The translations under genes were made by a program, and so were the position numbers. A model generated the notes under the pieces. The model was not told where the DNA came from. It did not search any database and saw only the letters and a program-made list of their open reading frames with translations. A stretch of 18,059 nt of DNA from a virus: UHGV virus genome UHGV-0072595. One strand, given 5' to 3'. Positions 890 to 17,910 of this stretch are shown here, one piece after another (position 1 is the stretch's first letter; every line of letters begins with the position of its first letter).

Positions 890-1485
890 TGGTTGCCTCC
901 TTTGCGAATCTGTTCCGCCCATTCTTCAAGGGATTTCTCCGCATATTCACCAGACAGGCCATCAATCGGGTGCGGTTCATTAGCTAACTCTTCTTTCGCT
1001 GACAGAATCATGCGTGTAACGTCGAAAACTTCAGCCAAAGGCTTATTGATAAATCCGTGATTGAACGCAGCAGCAAGACGGCTTGCAGTGTAGTTAATCC
1101 CCTCATTGCGTGCTTCCGCGCGAATTTCAGCCAGAAAAGCATCGGTAGCTGGGTGTTCTGTCTGGCTATGCATTGCCCATTCAGATAAGTACTCGAGGCA
1201 ACGGCGAAACTCCTGCCAATCACTGCACATGTTTAGGTTTCCGCCTTCACACTCGAACTGGTAATTCTCTAAACGGTCTGCAAACGCTCTGCCATTCTCG
1301 ATGGCACCAAGTGGAGCATCATATTTCAGCCCCGCATTCTCCGCCGCCAGCGCCGCGCACTTGGCCTCCGCTTCAGCAAATTTACGCACCAGATATTCAG
1401 CGTTTGTTTCGTTAACCTTTAAATCTTGTGGGATGCATTTACCTTTTAGAAATCCATCCATCTCAATTAGTGACATTTGTTTCAT
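886..1485 (-). CDS. Hypothetical protein (about 199 aa)
   Basis: Track ORF 886..1503; preferred start ATG at 1485 forms an ATGA overlap with the upstream stop (1482-1484); no recognisable family. Confidence 0.6.
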
Positions 1486-5229: not shown

Positions 5230-5664
5230 TTATTCTTGTTCTCTGGTCAAATTATATAGTTGGAAAACAAGGATGCATATATGAATGAACGATGCAGAGG
5301 CAATGCCGATGGCGATAGTGGGTATCATGTAGCCGCTTATGCTGGAAAGAAGCAATAACCCGCAGAAAAACAAAGCTCCAAGCTCAACAAAACTAAGGGC
5401 ATAGACAATAACTACCGATGTCATATACCCATACTCTCTAATCTTGGCCAGTCGGCGCGTTCTGCTTCCGATTAGAAACGTCAAGGCAGCAATCAGGATT
5501 GCAATCATGGTTCCTGCATATGATGACAATGTCGCCCCAAGACCATCTCTATGAGCTGAAAAAGAAACACCAGGAATGTAGTGGCGGAAAAGGAGATAGC
5601 AAATGCTTACGATAACGTAAGGAATTATTACTATGTAAACACCAGGCATGATTCTGTTCCGCAT
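5230..5664 (-). CDS. rexB: RexB (membrane component of the Rex abortive-infection/exclusion system, 144 aa)
   Basis: Track ORF; multi-pass hydrophobic protein of the right size immediately downstream of rexA as in lambda. Confidence 0.9.
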   Translation of the reverse strand: MRNRIMPGVYIVIIPYVIVSICYLLFRHYIPGVSFSAHRDGLGATLSSYAGTMIAILIAALTFLIGSRTRRLAKIREYGYMTSVVIVYALSFVELGALFFCGLLLLSSISGYMIPTIAIGIASASFIHICILVFQLYNLTREQE

Positions 5665-5679
5665 AATTACTCCTGATAA

Positions 5680-6519
5680 TTAATCCTTAACTTTGCCCAC
5701 CTGCCTTTTAAAACATTCCAGTATATCACTTTTCATTCTTGCGTAGCAATATGCCATCTCTTCAGCTATCTCAGCATTGGTGACCTTGTTCAGAGGCGCT
5801 GAGAGATGGCCTTTTTCTGATAGATAATGTTCTGTTAAAATATCTCCGGCCTCATCTTTTGCCCGCAGGCTAATGTCTGAAAATTGAGGTGACGGGTTAA
5901 AAATAATATCCTTGGCAACCTTTTTTATATCCCTTTTAAATTTTGGCTTAATGACTATATCCAATGAGTCAAAAAGCTCCCCTTCAATATCTGTTGCCCC
6001 TAAGACCTTTAATATATCGCCAAATACAGGTAGCTTGGCTTCTACCTTCACCGTTGTTCGGCCGATGAAATGCATATGCATAACATCGTCTTTGGTGGTT
6101 CCCCTCATCAGTGGCTCTATCTGAACGCGCTCTCCACTGCTTAATGACATTCCTTTCCCGATTAAAAAATCTGTCAGATCGGATGTGGTCGGCCCGAAAA
6201 CAGTTCTGGCAAAACCAATGGTGTCGCCTTCAACAAACAAAAAAGATGGGAATCCCAATGATTCGTCATCTGCGAGGCTGTTCTTAATATCTTCAACTGA
6301 AGCTTTAGAGCGATTTATCTTCTGAACCAGACTCTTGTCATTTGTTTTGGTAAAGAGAAAAGTTTTTCCATCGATTTTATGAATATACAAATAATTGGAG
6401 CCAACCTGCAGGTGATGATTATCAGCCAGCAGAGAATTAAGGAAAACAGACAGGTTTATTGAGCGCTTATCTTTCCCTTTATTTTTGCTGCGGTAAGTCG
6501 CATAAAAACCATTCTTCAT
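5680..6519 (-). CDS. rexA: RexA (sensor component of the Rex system, 279 aa)
   Basis: Track ORF MKNGFYATYRSKNKGKDKRSINLSVFLNSLLADNHHLQ...; matches lambda RexA as I recall it; cotranscribed with cI. Confidence 0.9.
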   Translation of the reverse strand: MKNGFYATYRSKNKGKDKRSINLSVFLNSLLADNHHLQVGSNYLYIHKIDGKTFLFTKTNDKSLVQKINRSKASVEDIKNSLADDESLGFPSFLFVEGDTIGFARTVFGPTTSDLTDFLIGKGMSLSSGERVQIEPLMRGTTKDDVMHMHFIGRTTVKVEAKLPVFGDILKVLGATDIEGELFDSLDIVIKPKFKRDIKKVAKDIIFNPSPQFSDISLRAKDEAGDILTEHYLSEKGHLSAPLNKVTNAEIAEEMAYCYARMKSDILECFKRQVGKVKD

Positions 6520-6631
6520 AATTCAATCCATTTACTATGTTATGTTCTGAGGGGAGTGAAAATTCCCCTAATTCGATGAAGATTCTTGCTCAATTGTTAT
6601 CAGCTATGCGCCGACCAGAACACCTTGCCGA

Positions 6632-7348
<717 letters not shown>

Positions 7349-11853: not shown

Positions 11854-12274
11854 ACTAAGAAGCCCCATCCATCAGCAGAACGCCATTCAAGCTATCCAGC
11901 AAATTCTTCCAGACCCAACCAAACCAATCGTAGTAACCATTCAGGAACGCAACCGCAGCTTAGACCAAAACAGGAAGCTATGGGCCTGCTTAGGTGACGT
12001 CTCTCGTCAGGTTGAATGGCATGGTCGCTGGCTGGATGCAGAAAGCTGGAAGTGTGTGTTTACCGCAGCATTAAAGCAGCAGGATGTTGTTCCTAACCTT
12101 GCCGGGAATGGCTTTGTGGTAATAGGCCAGTCAACCAGCAGGATGCGTGTAAGCGAATTTGCGGAGCTATTAGAGCTTATACAGGCATTCGGTACAGAGC
12201 GTGGCGTTAAGTGGTCAGACGAAGCGAGACTGGCTCTGGAGTGGAAAGCGAGATGGGGAGATCGGGCTGCATGA
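11831..12274 (+). CDS. ninB: NinB (Orf family recombination mediator, 147 aa)
   Basis: Track ORF MVRKLTFELRSPIHQQNAIQAIQQILPDPTKPIVVTIQERNRSLDQNRKLWACLGDVSRQVEWHGRWLDAESWK...; matches lambda NinB as I recall it. Confidence 0.9.
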   Translation: MVRKLTFELRSPIHQQNAIQAIQQILPDPTKPIVVTIQERNRSLDQNRKLWACLGDVSRQVEWHGRWLDAESWKCVFTAALKQQDVVPNLAGNGFVVIGQSTSRMRVSEFAELLELIQAFGTERGVKWSDEARLALEWKARWGDRAA

Positions 12275-12798
12275 CTATCAAATCAAATACGCCAGCACAC
12301 GACAAGGACTGCTGGCAAACGCCGCTTTGGCTTTTTGATGCACTGGATATTGAGTTTGGATTCTGGCTGGATTCGGCAGCGAGCGACAAAAATGCTCTGT
12401 GTGCTCACTGGCTAACTGAGGCCGACGACGCGCTCAATTCTGAGTGGGTAAGCCACGGTGCAATCTGGAATAACCCACCGTACAGCAATATCAGGCCGTG
12501 GGTGGAAAAAGCCGCTGAGCAGTGCATACAACAGCGACAGACGGTAGTTATGCTTGTGCCAGAGGATATGTCAGTCGGATGGTTCAGCAAGGCTCTGGAG
12601 AGTGTCGACGAAGTTCGCATCATCACTGATGGACGGATTAATTTTATCGAACCATCGACAGGGCTGGAGAAGAAGGGAAACAGCAAAGGCTCCATGCTGC
12701 TGATTTGGCGACCGTTCATCAGTCCTCGACGGATGTTTACTACCGTATCCAAAGCGGCATTGATGGCGATCGGGCAGGGCGTCAGGAGGGCGGCATGA
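12271..12798 (+). CDS. Phage DNA N6-adenine methyltransferase (Dam family; motif WNNPPYSN), about 175 aa
   Basis: Track ORF 12211..12798 trimmed to ATG 12271 (ATGA overlap with ninB stop); NPPY catalytic motif of N6-adenine/N4-cytosine MTases; small size and no adjacent restriction enzyme. Confidence 0.8.
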
Positions 12799-15111: not shown

Positions 15112-15626
15112 GCATAAGAGAACTAAACCTCACCAAAGAACAGCATGAGTGGCTGAATGGCTGGCTTGAACTGTGGGGCGCATGGGTTTATTCAGGTCGT
15201 CTGGAAAAGCGCATGAGCAGCGTAATAGCGAAGTTCATGGAGAGCGTAGAGCCGGGAAGAGTTATGACAAGGCCAATGTGTAATGATGATGATGGAATGT
15301 TGATTTCTCAGGTCGTCGATTCCGTCATGTACATTGACAAGAAAGCCTTTGGCATCCTCCTCAGCTACTACGCTCATGGTTCATCTAAGCGAGCAATTGC
15401 ATCCTACTATCACGCGACTGCAAAGCCACGCAAGATGTGTGGACGTGGTGGCGAGGGATGGAGAAAACCTTCACTGGCAACCTGTAGAAACGAAATTGAC
15501 GACATCCTGAAAGCGTCATTATTTGTTTTGTACCAACCAATGCAAAATGCTTTCAAAATGCGTAAACGTGTTGAGAAAGTTAAGCATGTTGCTGTTAAAA
15601 ACCTTGACATGCAATTAGCCATTTAG
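15108..15626 (+). CDS. Q: Late antiterminator Q (non-lambda type, 172 aa)
   Basis: Track ORF; last gene of the nin operon, immediately upstream of a pR'-like promoter, terminator hairpin and the lysis cassette; pattern WGAW...P.C.DDD resembles phage 21/82-type Q proteins (from memory). Confidence 0.7.
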   Translation: MSIRELNLTKEQHEWLNGWLELWGAWVYSGRLEKRMSSVIAKFMESVEPGRVMTRPMCNDDDGMLISQVVDSVMYIDKKAFGILLSYYAHGSSKRAIASYYHATAKPRKMCGRGGEGWRKPSLATCRNEIDDILKASLFVLYQPMQNAFKMRKRVEKVKHVAVKNLDMQLAI

Positions 15627-15633
15627 CCATAAT
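15604..15633 (+). promoter_or_regulatory. Candidate late promoter pR' (-35 TTGACA 15604-15609, 18-bp spacer, -10 CATAAT 15628-15633), overlapping the Q stop
   Basis: Hexamers read directly; position relative to Q and downstream terminator fits the lambdoid late-control architecture. Confidence 0.5.
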
Positions 15634-15644
15634 TAGAGGGTAAG

Positions 15645-15689
15645 CTGCCGTTAGTGACTCTTAAGTTGCAACGGTGGCTTTTTTTATTT
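15645..15689 (+). terminator. Terminator-like imperfect hairpin followed by a U-rich tract (TTTTTTTATTT), candidate tR'
   Basis: ctgccgtt...aacggtggc stem with G-U pairs and an extended inner stem, then U-tract, directly downstream of the putative pR'. Confidence 0.45.
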
Positions 15690-15764
15690 GGGTCAGTCGT
15701 ATAAAGGTCATTACGGAAGGCTGTTAACCTTCTTATCGTGGTTCGAGTCCACGCTGTCCCGCCA
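15690..15764 (+). tRNA. tRNA-Asn(GUU)-like gene with encoded CCA; atypical (one U-U mismatch in the acceptor stem, weak D-stem)
   Basis: Manual fold: acceptor GGGTCAG/CTGTCCC, anticodon stem GAAGG/CCTTC with loop CTGTTAA, T-arm CGTGG-TTCGAGT-CCACG, discriminator G, CCA. Confidence 0.5.
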
Positions 15765-15769
15765 AATAT

Positions 15770-15845
15770 GCTGGTTTAGCTCCAATGGTAGAGCAGTCGC
15801 CTTGTAAGCGAATGGGTAGCGGTTCAAGTCCGTTAACCAGCACCA
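15770..15845 (+). tRNA. tRNA-Thr(UGU) gene with encoded CCA
   Basis: Manual fold: perfect 7-bp acceptor GCTGGTT/AACCAGC, D-arm GCTC-CAATGGTA-GAGC, anticodon loop CTTGTAA, T-arm AGCGG-TTCAAGT-CCGTT, discriminator A, CCA. Confidence 0.65.
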
Positions 15846-16089
15846 TAACTGAGCCGTAGCCACTGGCTATCCTGAATTCATCAGTGATAGTTACGCTGCG
15901 GCCTTCTACACATGACCTTCGTGAAAGCGGGTGGCATGAGGTTGCGCTAACAACCTCCTGCCGTTTTGCCCGTGCATATCGGTCACGAACAAATCTGATT
16001 ACTAAACACAGTAGCCTGGATTTGTTCTATCAGTAATCGACCTTATTCCTAATTAAATAGAGCAAATCCCCTCAATGAAGGGGTAGAGC

Positions 16090-16293
16090 ATGTACCGTAT
16101 GGACAAAATCAGAGAATGGTTCAGTTACAGCTTCGGAGGACTGACTGCGATGGGTGGCATTCTCTCCCTGAATGACTGGGCTGTCATCATTGGTATTCTT
16201 TGTACTGTCGGCACATTTGGCATCAACTGGTACTACAAGCGCAAAGAGCGCGAGGACAGATTGAATGGCAATGTCACCGGCACTACGAAATAG
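16090..16293 (+). CDS. S: Holin, class II/pinholin-like, with dual-start motif (M-Y-R-M) predicting antiholin and holin forms
   Basis: Track [70 protein letters not shown]; two TM segments, charged C-terminus; immediately upstream of and overlapping the endolysin gene. Confidence 0.75.
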
Positions 16294-16768
16294 CGTAATA
16301 GCGGCGATAAGTGGCGGGGCTATTGCTATAGCATCTGTGTTAATCACTGGACCAAGTGGTAACGATGGCCTGGAAGGTGTCAGCTACATACCATACAAAG
16401 ATATTGTTGGTGTATGGACTGTATGCCACGGACACACCGGAAAAGACATCATGCTCGGTAAAACGTATACCAAAGCAGAATGCAAAGCCCTCCTGAATAA
16501 AGACCTTGCCACGGTCGCCAGACAAATTAACCCGTACATCAAAGTCGATATACCGGAAACAATGCGCGGCGCTCTTTACTCATTCGTTTACAACGTGGGT
16601 GCTGGCAATTTCAGAACATCGACGCTTCTTCGCAAAATAAACCAGGGCGATATCAAAGGCGCATGTGATCAGCTACGTCGCTGGACATATGCTGGCGGTA
16701 AGCAATGGAAAGGTCTCATGACTCGTCGTGAGATTGAGCGTGAAGTCTGTTTGTGGGGGAAACAATGA
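16265..16768 (+). CDS. R: SAR endolysin (T4-lysozyme-fold muramidase with N-terminal signal-arrest-release domain; phage 21 R-like)
   Basis: Track ORF; Gly/Ala-rich weakly hydrophobic N-terminus [21 protein letters not shown] followed by the lysozyme core; matches my recollection of R21. Confidence 0.85.
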
Positions 16769-17226
16769 GCAGAGTAACCGCGATTATCTCCGCTCTGGTT
16801 ATCTGCATCATCGTCTGCCTGTCATGGGCTGTTAATCATTACCGTGATAACGCCATTACCTACAAAGCCCAGCGCGACAAAAATGCCAGAGAACTGAAGC
16901 TGGCGAACGCGGCAATTACTGACATGCAGATGCGTCAGCGTGATGTTGCTGCGCTCGATGCAAAATACACGAAGGAGTTAGCTGATGCGAAAGCTGAAAA
17001 TGATGCTCTGCGTGATGATGTTGCCGCTGGTCGTCGTCGGTTGCACATCAAAGCAGTCTGTCAGTCAGTGCGTGAAGCCACCACCGCCTCCGGCGTGGAT
17101 AATGCAGCCTCCCCCCGACTGGCAGACACCGCTGAACGGGATTATTTCACCCTCAGAGAGAGGCTGATCACGATGCAAAAACAACTGGAAGGAACCCAGA
17201 AGTATATTAATGAGCAGTGCAGATAG
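16765..17226 (+). CDS. Rz: Rz i-spanin (153 aa)
   Basis: Track ORF 16753..17226 trimmed to ATG 16765 (ATGA overlap with endolysin stop); [49 protein letters not shown]...; lambda Rz. Confidence 0.95.
16985..17167 (+). CDS. Rz1: Rz1 o-spanin lipoprotein embedded in the +1 frame of Rz (60 aa, proline-rich)
   Basis: Track [63 protein letters not shown]; lipobox VVGC; matches lambda Rz1. Confidence 0.9.
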
Positions 17227-17257: not shown

Positions 17258-17551
17258 TTATTGTGAGCAATAGACACGCGCTTCCAGCGGAGTATAAATG
17301 CCTAAAGTAATAAAACCGAGCAATCCATTTACGAATGTTTGCTGGGTTTCTGTTTTAACAACATTTTCTGCGCCGCCACAAATTTTGGCTGCATCAACAG
17401 TTTTCTCCTGTCCAATTCCCGAAACGAAGAAGTGATGGGTGATGGTTTCCTTTGGTGTTACTGCTGTCGGTTTGTTTCCAACAGTAAACGTCTGTTGAGC
17501 ACATCCTGTAATAAGCATTGCCAGAGCGGCAGAAAACAACATTTTTTTCAT
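17258..17551 (-). CDS. bor: Bor outer-membrane lipoprotein (serum-resistance/Iss family, 97 aa)
   Basis: Track ORF 17258..17599 trimmed to ATG 17551 (MKKMLFSAALAMLITGCAQQ..., lipobox LITGC; AGGA SD); matches lambda Bor. Confidence 0.9.
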   Translation of the reverse strand: MKKMLFSAALAMLITGCAQQTFTVGNKPTAVTPKETITHHFFVSGIGQEKTVDAAKICGGAENVVKTETQQTFVNGLLGFITLGIYTPLEARVYCSQ

Positions 17552-17910
17552 CTTATTATCCTGCATTGTTAAAAACGGCAGAATCCTATGTGACAACAAT
17601 TAAACGATAGTTAAATGGATTGATGAAAATTAAAACTATATAGGTGGATGCTCAGCCTATTGGAGGAGGGGGGCACTCAGAATCCTGTGGAATGAAATAA
17701 ACCGCTCTTTCTGTCCATTACCCTTTTAGCTGCGCTGTATCGTCGCCGTATTCCCGCATTAACCATGACCGTAGCCCGACGGGGAATTCCTTCTGCGTGA
17801 GTGTGCGGGAATAATCAAAAACGATGCACACCGGGTTTTACTGTGCTGACAGACGCAGGGTTACCCTCATAGTCGCTTTTCCGGTGCGATGGTGGAAGAA
17901 ACCGGGATGT

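Follow-up and report, generated by a model that had tools for sequence, protein, structure and literature searches.

A tRNA-Asn and tRNA-Thr pair at the head of a lambdoid late operon: phage-lineage tRNAs with a probable role in late translation

Results

Two tRNA genes directly follow the late terminator

We analyzed a window (the whole stretch of DNA under study, 18,059 nucleotides) and collected the features of its late region in Table 1. Across these 18 kb, ARAGORN called exactly two tRNAs, Asn(gtt) and Thr(tgt), both on the plus strand and at the coordinates that an earlier note had obtained by folding two adjacent, CCA-ended cloverleaves by hand; Rfam and a direct reading of the sequence agree. 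The encoded 3' ends are ...CCCGCCA in tRNA-Asn and ...AGCACCA in tRNA-Thr. Against Rfam family RF00005 (gathering score, 29 bits), tRNA-Asn scored 55.3 bits and tRNA-Thr 61.5 bits, each alignment spanning model positions 1–71 of 71. Genuine host tRNAs scored 53–79 bits and T5 tRNAs 33–69 bits by the same method, so that both window scores sit inside the ranges of genuine tRNAs, and chance cannot account for the two calls. Folded on its own, each RNA has a cloverleaf as its minimum-energy structure.

Both tRNAs carry non-canonical positions. The ARAGORN drawing and the Rfam alignment both display the two irregularities previously ascribed to tRNA-Asn, namely a U4.U69 mismatch in the acceptor stem (15693/15757) and a weak, AU-rich D-stem made of G10-C25, U11-A24, A12-U23, and a U13.U22 mismatch. 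U8, A14, G18-G19, U33, and the T-loop UUCRA are all in place in tRNA-Asn, and the same holds for tRNA-Thr with the exception of position 14, which is C (15783) where nearly all tRNAs have A14. C14 was unchanged in 33 of 33 copies of tRNA-Thr (see below), which also has a G27.A43 mismatch (15796/15812); its earlier description as a clean tRNA therefore needs correcting. The spacer between the genes is polymorphic among copies at 15767 (T/C).

Table 1. Positions of the late-region features surrounding the tRNA pair in the window.
Feature	Position	Strand	Basis and remarks
Q antiterminator, phage 21 type, 172 aa	15108..15626	+	ORF; homologues annotated phage 21-like Q in Sf6, HK75, and E. coli
Late promoter P R'	15604..15633	+	TTGACA, 18-nt spacer, CATAAT; 11/12 consensus match
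qut region and t R' intrinsic terminator	15642..15689	+	17-bp hairpin, then UUUUUUUAUUU
tRNA-Asn(GUU)	15690..15764	+	75 nt, encoded CCA, G73, 4-nt variable loop; ARAGORN and Rfam
Spacer AATAT, 5 nt	15765..15769	+	Read from sequence
tRNA-Thr(UGU)	15770..15845	+	76 nt, encoded CCA, A73, G1-C72, C2-G71; ARAGORN and Rfam
Untranslated late leader, lambda-type	15846..16089	+	Near-identical in Sf6, HK75, and lambda; runs to the holin start
Lysis cassette	16090..17226	+	ORFs; homologues annotated holin and lysozyme in E. coli and Sf6
Holin	16090..16293	+	ORF
Endolysin	16265..16768	+	ORF
Rz	16753..17226	+	ORF
Rz1	16985..17167	+	ORF, nested inside Rz

The pair lies 3' of P R', qut, and t R' and 5' of the holin gene, on the same strand and with no promoter of its own. 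P R' is the sole plus-strand promoter-like site within 15500–16120, and its location agrees with the annotated P R' of Sf6 and HK75; the qut/t R' region likewise corresponds to features annotated in Sf6. The t R' hairpin (15642–15680) has a predicted stability of −20.2 kcal/mol (z = −4.79), a value that none of 200 shuffled sequences equaled. The tRNA-Asn gene starts 1–2 bases past the end of this hairpin and its U-tract. Because tRNA-Asn abuts t R', there is no space for a separate promoter, and the tRNAs must therefore derive from P R' read-through. No terminator-like site was found on the plus strand of the leader that separates the pair from the holin gene. The proposal that the pair sits between Q and the holin within the Q-dependent late transcript is thus sustained by the position of P R' and by the contact between t R' and tRNA-Asn. 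The remaining window is a lambdoid early region encoding Erf, RexB, RexA, a cI-like repressor, an O-like protein, a primase-helicase, NinB, and Dam, and its best matches are E. coli prophages, with 99.6% identity across 85% of the window.

We expect that both tRNAs should be charged correctly by AsnRS and ThrRS, because the identity elements of these enzymes are present. The identity set of E. coli AsnRS reportedly comprises G34, U35, U36, and the discriminator G73, and that of ThrRS is said to comprise G1-C72, C2-G71, G35, and U36. As read from the sequence, the anticodon GUU and G73 of tRNA-Asn match the former set, and the acceptor stem GCUGGUU/AACCAGC and the anticodon UGU of tRNA-Thr match the latter.

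The pair is a known element of lambdoid phages

The pair is not new: reference phage records annotate it, and work on P22-like phages has discussed it. A 601-nt region containing it had matches in 181 phage records, many of which annotate the series antitermination protein Q, tRNA-Asn, tRNA-Thr, and holin, among them SPN9CC, BTP1, vB_SosS_Oslo, and Sf6. The annotation of Sf6 includes P R', qut, t R', tRNA-Asn, and tRNA-Thr, with the remark “similar to phage 21.” Over the 156-nt tRNA region, identity to the window was 99.4% for phage 21 and Sf6 and 100% for BTP1 and Bas106; in Sf6 a spacer base and the flanking leader differ, and nothing else does. Phages 21, Sf6, and BTP1 share with the window the order Q21-type Q, P R', qut, t R', Asn, 5-nt spacer, Thr, leader, and holin, whereas the lysis cassette and early region of the window form a mosaic other than theirs.

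In complete E. coli genomes, part of the region was matched in 1021 of 5426 and at least 80% of it was covered in 259 (4.8%). The NCBI pipeline calls both tRNA-Asn and tRNA-Thr in E. coli genomes with the region, the only allele from which it omits tRNA-Asn being one with an extra G in the Asn acceptor. A species-level scan located the Asn core in no more than five representative genomes, of which two are MAG contigs that were probably mis-binned, and is thus a poor guide to host range. The epsilon34 paper noted tRNAs Asn GTT and Thr TGT in P22-like prophages. Both BTP1 tRNA genes are among the loci with TPM above 100 reported by Owen et al. 2020, who placed the start of the BTP1 lytic operon directly after the tRNA genes.

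Substitution patterns point to maintained tRNA structure

We compared copies of each tRNA after fuzzy extraction from every locus. The 34 Asn copies came from 32 IMG/VR loci anchored on Q, from Sf6, and from one E. coli prophage; 33 copies of tRNA-Thr were available. tRNA-Asn is identical in 30 of its 34 copies, the others having a changed T-loop base (two copies), C62A (one), or an extra G on the 3' acceptor strand (one). Within the cassette it shows the strongest conservation, and it is retained where the partner tRNA has been replaced. The U4.U69 mismatch is constant (34/34) and is also kept in ST64T, phage 21, and Flyfo. Changes in the two sets fall mostly at unpaired positions (26, 45, 47, 59, and 60), and those among the Thr copies alone mostly at 26, 45, 47, and 59. 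The Thr stem changes C40U and A70G preserve pairing as G.U. Three states of the Thr pair 3-70 occur, U3-A70, U3.G70, and C3-G70, the last being a compensated replacement of U3-A70 in Flyfo, a siphovirus from bat faeces whose flanking sequences are unrelated. Thr alleles that break stems, G1A and G10T, are singletons. This pattern shows purifying selection on the structure of both tRNAs.

The nearest more distant relatives of tRNA-Asn belong to the T4-like phages Morganella Rgz1 and Salmonella STP4-a and to the jumbo phage Erwinia pEa_SNUABM_19. These tRNAs have in common with the window tRNA-Asn U8-C9, the GUAU/UUAC D-stem with U13.U22, the D-loop AAAGGUYA, and the four-base variable loop UUAU, whereas their acceptor, anticodon, and T stems differ from it and still pair. 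At position 4-69 the relatives have U.G, U.G, and C-G where the lambdoid copy of the window has U4.U69. In a four-sequence Asn alignment, double changes occurred in 10 of 21 pairs, and 94% of cells were paired compared with 36–47% in slid controls; the covariation score of the lineage was reached by no shuffle. The D-arm is invariant in this alignment, and the other three stems covary. Judged by these comparisons, the weak Asn D-arm is a trait that a lineage of phage tRNA-Asn has conserved, and among the oddities of this tRNA U4.U69 alone is confined to the lambdoid copy.

These observations bear on the suggestion, raised in the earlier note, that tRNA-Asn is a degenerate pseudogene. The mismatched acceptor stem, the D-stem of three AU-rich pairs plus U13.U22, and a score below that of host asnT (72.6 bits) would fit such decay. 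However, the score of tRNA-Asn is about that of T5 tRNA-Asn (55.4 bits), which is functional in PARIS rescue, and exceeds that of E. coli tyrU (53.4 bits); the D-arm stays unchanged across four distant phages as the remaining stems covary; and U4.U69, which stems from the U.G or C-G pair of the relatives, is fixed in all 34 copies. The annotation of this tRNA by the NCBI pipeline in all but the extra-G allele and the reported high expression of the identical BTP1 tRNA-Asn argue in the same direction, and we regard decay to a pseudogene as very improbable.

For tRNA-Thr, the closest outside relative is the tRNA-Thr of the N4-like phage Bas69, which is identical in the acceptor stem and T-loop but has A14, U16, and an anticodon stem paired throughout, as against C14, A16, and G27.A43 in the window tRNA. 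Identity to E. coli tRNAs is 62% for Asn (versus asnT) and 71% for Thr (versus thrU). With such low identities and with phage tRNAs as the nearest relatives, recent capture from the host was rejected, and both genes are old phage-lineage tRNAs.

The pair occupies a swap slot behind t R'

We surveyed the slot behind t R' with Q rather than the tRNAs as the anchor, using 80 IMG/VR loci whose Q is at least 98% identical. The tRNA pair was present in 32 loci, and about 43 had unrelated inserts of 160–300 nt, all starting with GCACAACAGGTAAGAGCA. One class of insert is lambda's own sequence immediately 3' of its t R' (97–99% identity); the remaining classes have only their ends in common with the lambda sequence. 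In 20 loci with alternative inserts, Rfam at gathering thresholds found no family, and with permissive settings the sole match was a weak tmRNA-like tail.

The tRNA content of the slot also varies. ST64T has a variant at the slot with the same tRNA-Asn. In phage L, the same Asn stands at the 5' end of the late operon with a partner different from that in the window, Leu(UAA), and an E. albertii prophage has Asn with Gly(UCC), the Thr there being a non-functional, non-pairing chimera with host thrU. The slot of the siphovirus Flyfo again has the same Asn, in the order Asn-Phe-Thr, with the Phe anticodon GAA. Stx-converting lambdoid phages of the 933W type carry a comparable cluster, ileZ-argN-argO, between Q/P R' and the lysis genes within the Q-dependent late transcript, where its proposed role is to supply tRNAs for the rare codons AUA, AGA, and AGG; it differs from the window pair in its specificities and its Q type and is unrelated in sequence. 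The pair is thus optional cargo, lodged where the late leader begins, in a slot prone to recombination.

Because the slot is recombination-prone and its cargo optional, a reading in which the cassette travels as neutral mosaic cargo with the Q21/P R'/t R' module, at little or no benefit to the phage, retains some weight. It gains from the exchange of tRNAs for other inserts in so large a share of loci, from the rare broken alleles (Thr G1A and G10T, Asn C62A and the extra acceptor G), and from the chimeric Thr of E. albertii. Set against this are the pattern of polymorphism, which shows purifying selection on tRNA structure, the retention of the cassette in the unrelated flanks of Flyfo with a compensatory change in the acceptor stem, and the conservation of the Asn lineage over very different phage families. 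We therefore consider neutral carriage distinctly unlikely.

The pair lies at the very 5' end of the polycistronic late transcript, Asn following the terminator U-tract by only 1–2 bases, and this could also indicate a role in cis, in which the tRNA folds serve mainly as RNase P/RNase E sites that cut off the qut/t R' leader and thereby define where the late mRNA starts and how stable it is. Such punctuation would not require conserved anticodon loops, identity elements, or CCA ends, and viable relatives, among them lambda and HK75, have lambda-type leader segments in place of tRNAs. As an account of the pair, this is highly improbable.

Late-gene codon demand is compatible with supplementation of the tRNA pool

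The phage L paper proposed that the tRNAs supplement the pool for capsid synthesis. We likewise favor, with a probability of roughly 0.6, the reading that the window pair consists of functional phage-lineage tRNAs that are made by Q-dependent read-through and top up the tRNA pool for late-gene translation. Transcription from P R' would halt at t R' unless Q has modified RNA polymerase, and Q-dependent read-through, together with a slight leak, would yield a tRNA precursor. From it, tRNA-Asn and tRNA-Thr would be freed by RNase P and the 3' processing nucleases of the host, a release that should coincide with the onset of bulk late-protein synthesis. Once charged, the pair would add decoding capacity for AAU/AAC and ACA, the proposed benefit being a late translation that is faster or more robust. 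ACA is decoded in the host by thrU, a single-copy gene. The pair is dispensable, because many close relatives hold other sequence in the slot.

We compared codon usage in the late genes of Sf6, a complete phage with the pair, with that of 29 E. coli ribosomal-protein, EF, and rpoA genes, a host baseline that represents highly expressed genes and not measured tRNA abundances. ACA is used 16.7 times per 1000 codons in Sf6 late genes (29% of Thr codons) and 26 times per 1000 in the coat gene, compared with 3.0 per 1000 (5%) in the E. coli set. Asn codons reach 48 versus 34 per 1000, and AAT is the most over-used single codon of the Sf6 late genes.

When codons were assigned to 40 tRNA species, Asn(GUU) and Thr(UGU) ranked fifth and sixth by absolute excess, directly behind Gly(UCC) in fourth place, with Leu(GAG), Gln(CUG), and Tyr also exceeding the pair. 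By ratio, the list is headed by Ile(AUA), Arg(AGG/AGA), and Gly(UCC), with Thr(UGU) seventh and Asn(GUU) 23rd, and by demand per gene copy the two rank 9th and 17th. P22 has no tRNA, yet the demand of its late genes is similar (ACA 12.9 and Asn 52.9 per 1000), and the pair is missing from roughly half of the phages whose Q is at least 98% identical. Codon demand thus does not uniquely predict an Asn and Thr pair. Supplementation of the pool is plausible, and it suits the mixed repertoire of the slot, which includes Thr(UGU), Leu(UAA), Gly(UCC), and Phe(GAA).

Gly(UCC), the fourth-ranked species by excess, is the partner of Asn in the E. albertii prophage.

Overlap with the targets of the PARIS nuclease

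The earlier note had also raised the possibility of an unusual tRNA that evades an anticodon nuclease. In a specific form of this idea, an abortive-infection nuclease that cuts tRNAs, PARIS AriB or one related to it, would destroy host tRNAs, and the uncleavable phage copies would take their place and sustain late translation; we hold this reading to be unlikely and advance it tentatively. Such a counter-defence is compatible with pool supplementation, and the two are not mutually exclusive. According to Belukhina et al. 2025, the main targets of AriB are Lys(UUU), Thr(UGU), and Asn(GUU), and the T5 variants of these three tRNAs jointly neutralise PARIS. The window pair represents two of the three specificities, an overlap that two random picks from about 40 species would give with a chance of about 0.004, as computed post hoc. 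PARIS also protects against lambda, a phage without tRNAs.

The sequences themselves are consistent with escape from AriB. In tRNA-Lys mutagenesis by Belukhina et al. 2025, U39A abolished cleavage, A41C inhibited it, and U16C impaired it. Nucleotides 36–41 are UAAUCA in host thrU and UAAUCC in asnT, compared with UAAGCG in the window Thr and UAACCU in the window Asn, and UAAGCA and UAAGUU in T5 Thr and Asn. Position 16 is A in both window tRNAs and U in the host tRNAs, so that the determinants 16, 39, and 41 are all altered (A16/G39/G41 in Thr and A16/C39/U41 in Asn). Relative to the T5 Lys/Thr/Asn set (Burman 2024; Belukhina 2025), the window has two of three specificities in common and, like it, substitutions at 39 and 41, and the window tRNAs have in addition lost U16. 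In contrast to T5, the window belongs to a temperate phage with just two tRNAs, which are 61–64% identical to the T5 genes, and has no tRNA-Lys.

The absence of tRNA-Lys weighs heavily on the argument, since tRNA-Lys is the best AriB substrate and T5 tRNA-Lys is needed for rescue, and no phage tRNA-Lys was seen in the window or in any cassette variant. Moreover, A16 and the 31-39 pair, G-C or C-G, are shared with the T4-like/jumbo Asn and N4-like Thr and are thus traits of the lineages and not adaptations peculiar to this phage, and positions 16, 39, and 41 are among the most variable of tRNAs, which makes differences there weak evidence; the available phage relatives may themselves be under the same selection at these positions. 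The determinants of AriB are incompletely known, since T5 tRNA-Lys stayed uncleaved when given the cleavage site of its E. coli counterpart. AriB does not target the alternative partners in the slot, Gly(UCC), Leu(UAA), and Phe(GAA), and PARIS genes are absent from the window. In the literature searched, including Belukhina et al. 2025, we found no paper linking temperate-phage tRNAs to PARIS. The evasion idea has gained a candidate nuclease, AriB, with which the two sequences are consistent; the U.U mismatch and the D-stem from which it had set out are irrelevant to it.

Two further candidates were tried and rejected. Self-immunity to a tRNA-cleaving system of the phage's own had been considered for an early “toprim domain” protein, which Pfam identifies as a Toprim_2 + DnaB_C primase-helicase; a PADLOC search of the window for defence systems returned RexA/RexB only. 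Evasion of colicin E5 was dropped on the basis of the specificity of this colicin, tRNA-Asn retaining U33-G34-U35 like its host counterpart.

Discussion

As found, the pair is of small importance, and the odd tRNA-Asn, which had looked like a possible pseudogene, proves to be an ordinary member of a phage tRNA lineage: its score, its near-uniformity among copies, the lineage-wide D-arm, and the reported high expression of the BTP1 copy all speak against decay. The layout settles a question that the phage L paper had left open, the source of the tRNAs being P R' read-through. Within the reading that we prefer, supplementation of the pool for late translation, the overlap of the pair with the list of PARIS targets is the one loose end. 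That the Asn and Thr cassette, which is widespread among P22-like and lambda-like phages, is a temperate-phage counter-measure to PARIS-type Toprim tRNases, acting through uncleavable copies or as competitive decoys while late proteins are being produced, is doubtful on present evidence. If true, it would extend the tRNA escape mechanism of T5 to prophages and would predict AriB variants that target mainly Thr and Asn and not Lys, and it would make tRNAs a form of anti-defence cargo in temperate phages too.

The tRNA Slot and Its Inserts

The position directly 3' of t R', the intrinsic terminator that precedes tRNA-Asn, acts as a swap site (window 15689-15846; Q-anchored IMG/VR loci L008-L087; lambda, L095, 376-545). 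Of the 80 phage loci whose Q is near-identical, the tRNA pair occupies this slot in 32, and unrelated inserts of 160-300 nt are found there in about 43. The inserts share a 5' start, GCACAACAGGTAAGAGCA, and a matching arm, CAGTGCTCTT..GTTGTG, which together apparently form a hairpin framing a hypervariable middle; a search of the slot inserts in 20 loci against Rfam, at gathering thresholds, matched no family. One insert class is lambda's own post-t R' sequence (L095, 376-545), and in another, of ~302 nt, the sequence CTGACGAG...CGAAAC is a candidate hammerhead-like core. The 215-nt class shows a weak resemblance to tmRNA in its tRNA-like domain (RF00023, 20 bits, where the gathering score is 47); ARAGORN made no call on it.

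Structure and Alleles of the tRNA Genes

The tRNA-Thr has C14 (window 15783) in place of the near-universal A14 and therefore cannot form the tertiary pair U8-A14; a second irregularity is the G27.A43 mismatch (window 15796/15812). Both features are fixed in the 33 tRNA-Thr copies compared, whereas in the N4-like relative, the tRNA-Thr of phage Bas69, position 14 is A14 and the stem is paired throughout. For tRNA-Asn, an additional G in one E. coli prophage locus (L002) caused NCBI's pipeline to drop the gene and moved the ARAGORN call to a 72-nt gene. This allele could be genuinely frameshifted or could reflect a homopolymer sequencing error; the Asn annotation is also missing in several further E. 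coli genomes of the hit list.

Other Genes of the Window

The only recognised defence system within the window is the rexB-rexA-cI-like immunity region. Directly beyond the lysis genes, in the opposite orientation, lies an ORF of 113 aa whose N-terminus is lipoprotein-like and whose product may be similar to the serum-resistance lipoprotein Bor of lambda.

Features of the window and of the comparison loci
Feature	Locus	Position	Strand	Remark
RexB	window	5230-5664	-	
RexA	window	5680-6519	-	
S24/HTH repressor	window	6632-7345	-	
rexB-rexA-cI-like region	window	5230-7345	-	
Dam-family methyltransferase	window	12211-12798		nin region
113-aa ORF	window	17258-17599	-	
Additional G	E. coli Z1323CEC0019 (L002)	~756		tRNA-Asn 3' acceptor strand
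215-nt insert class	HK75 (L003)	936-994		3' end, T-arm + acceptor-like (GCCGGTTCGATTCCGGCCGCCACAACCC)
215-nt insert class	L016	2227-2285		as in HK75
Different second tRNA-like gene	ST64T (L088)	981-1049		irregular anticodon arm; Rfam 42 bits
Asn-Phe(GAA)-Thr	Flyfo siphovirus Tbat2_3, bat faeces (L089)	901-1138		
Intact tRNA-Asn, chimeric Thr, glyT-like tRNA-Gly(UCC)	Escherichia albertii NBRC 107761 (L099)	5380-5760		

Cassette Variants and Mobility

In ST64T the tRNA-Asn is identical despite the differing second tRNA-like gene, on which ARAGORN made no call; the phage L paper describes Asn and Leu(UAA) in the same position. In the E. albertii chimera the 5' half comes from the phage tRNA-Thr and the 3' half from a host thrU-like gene, with loss of pairing in the acceptor stem, and the arrangement looks like the product of recombination of the prophage cassette with the thrU-tyrU-glyT operon of the host. 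In the Flyfo siphovirus the cassette is flanked by another terminator on its 5' side and another holin on its 3' side, and because these differ, the cassette is mobile between unrelated late-leader contexts.
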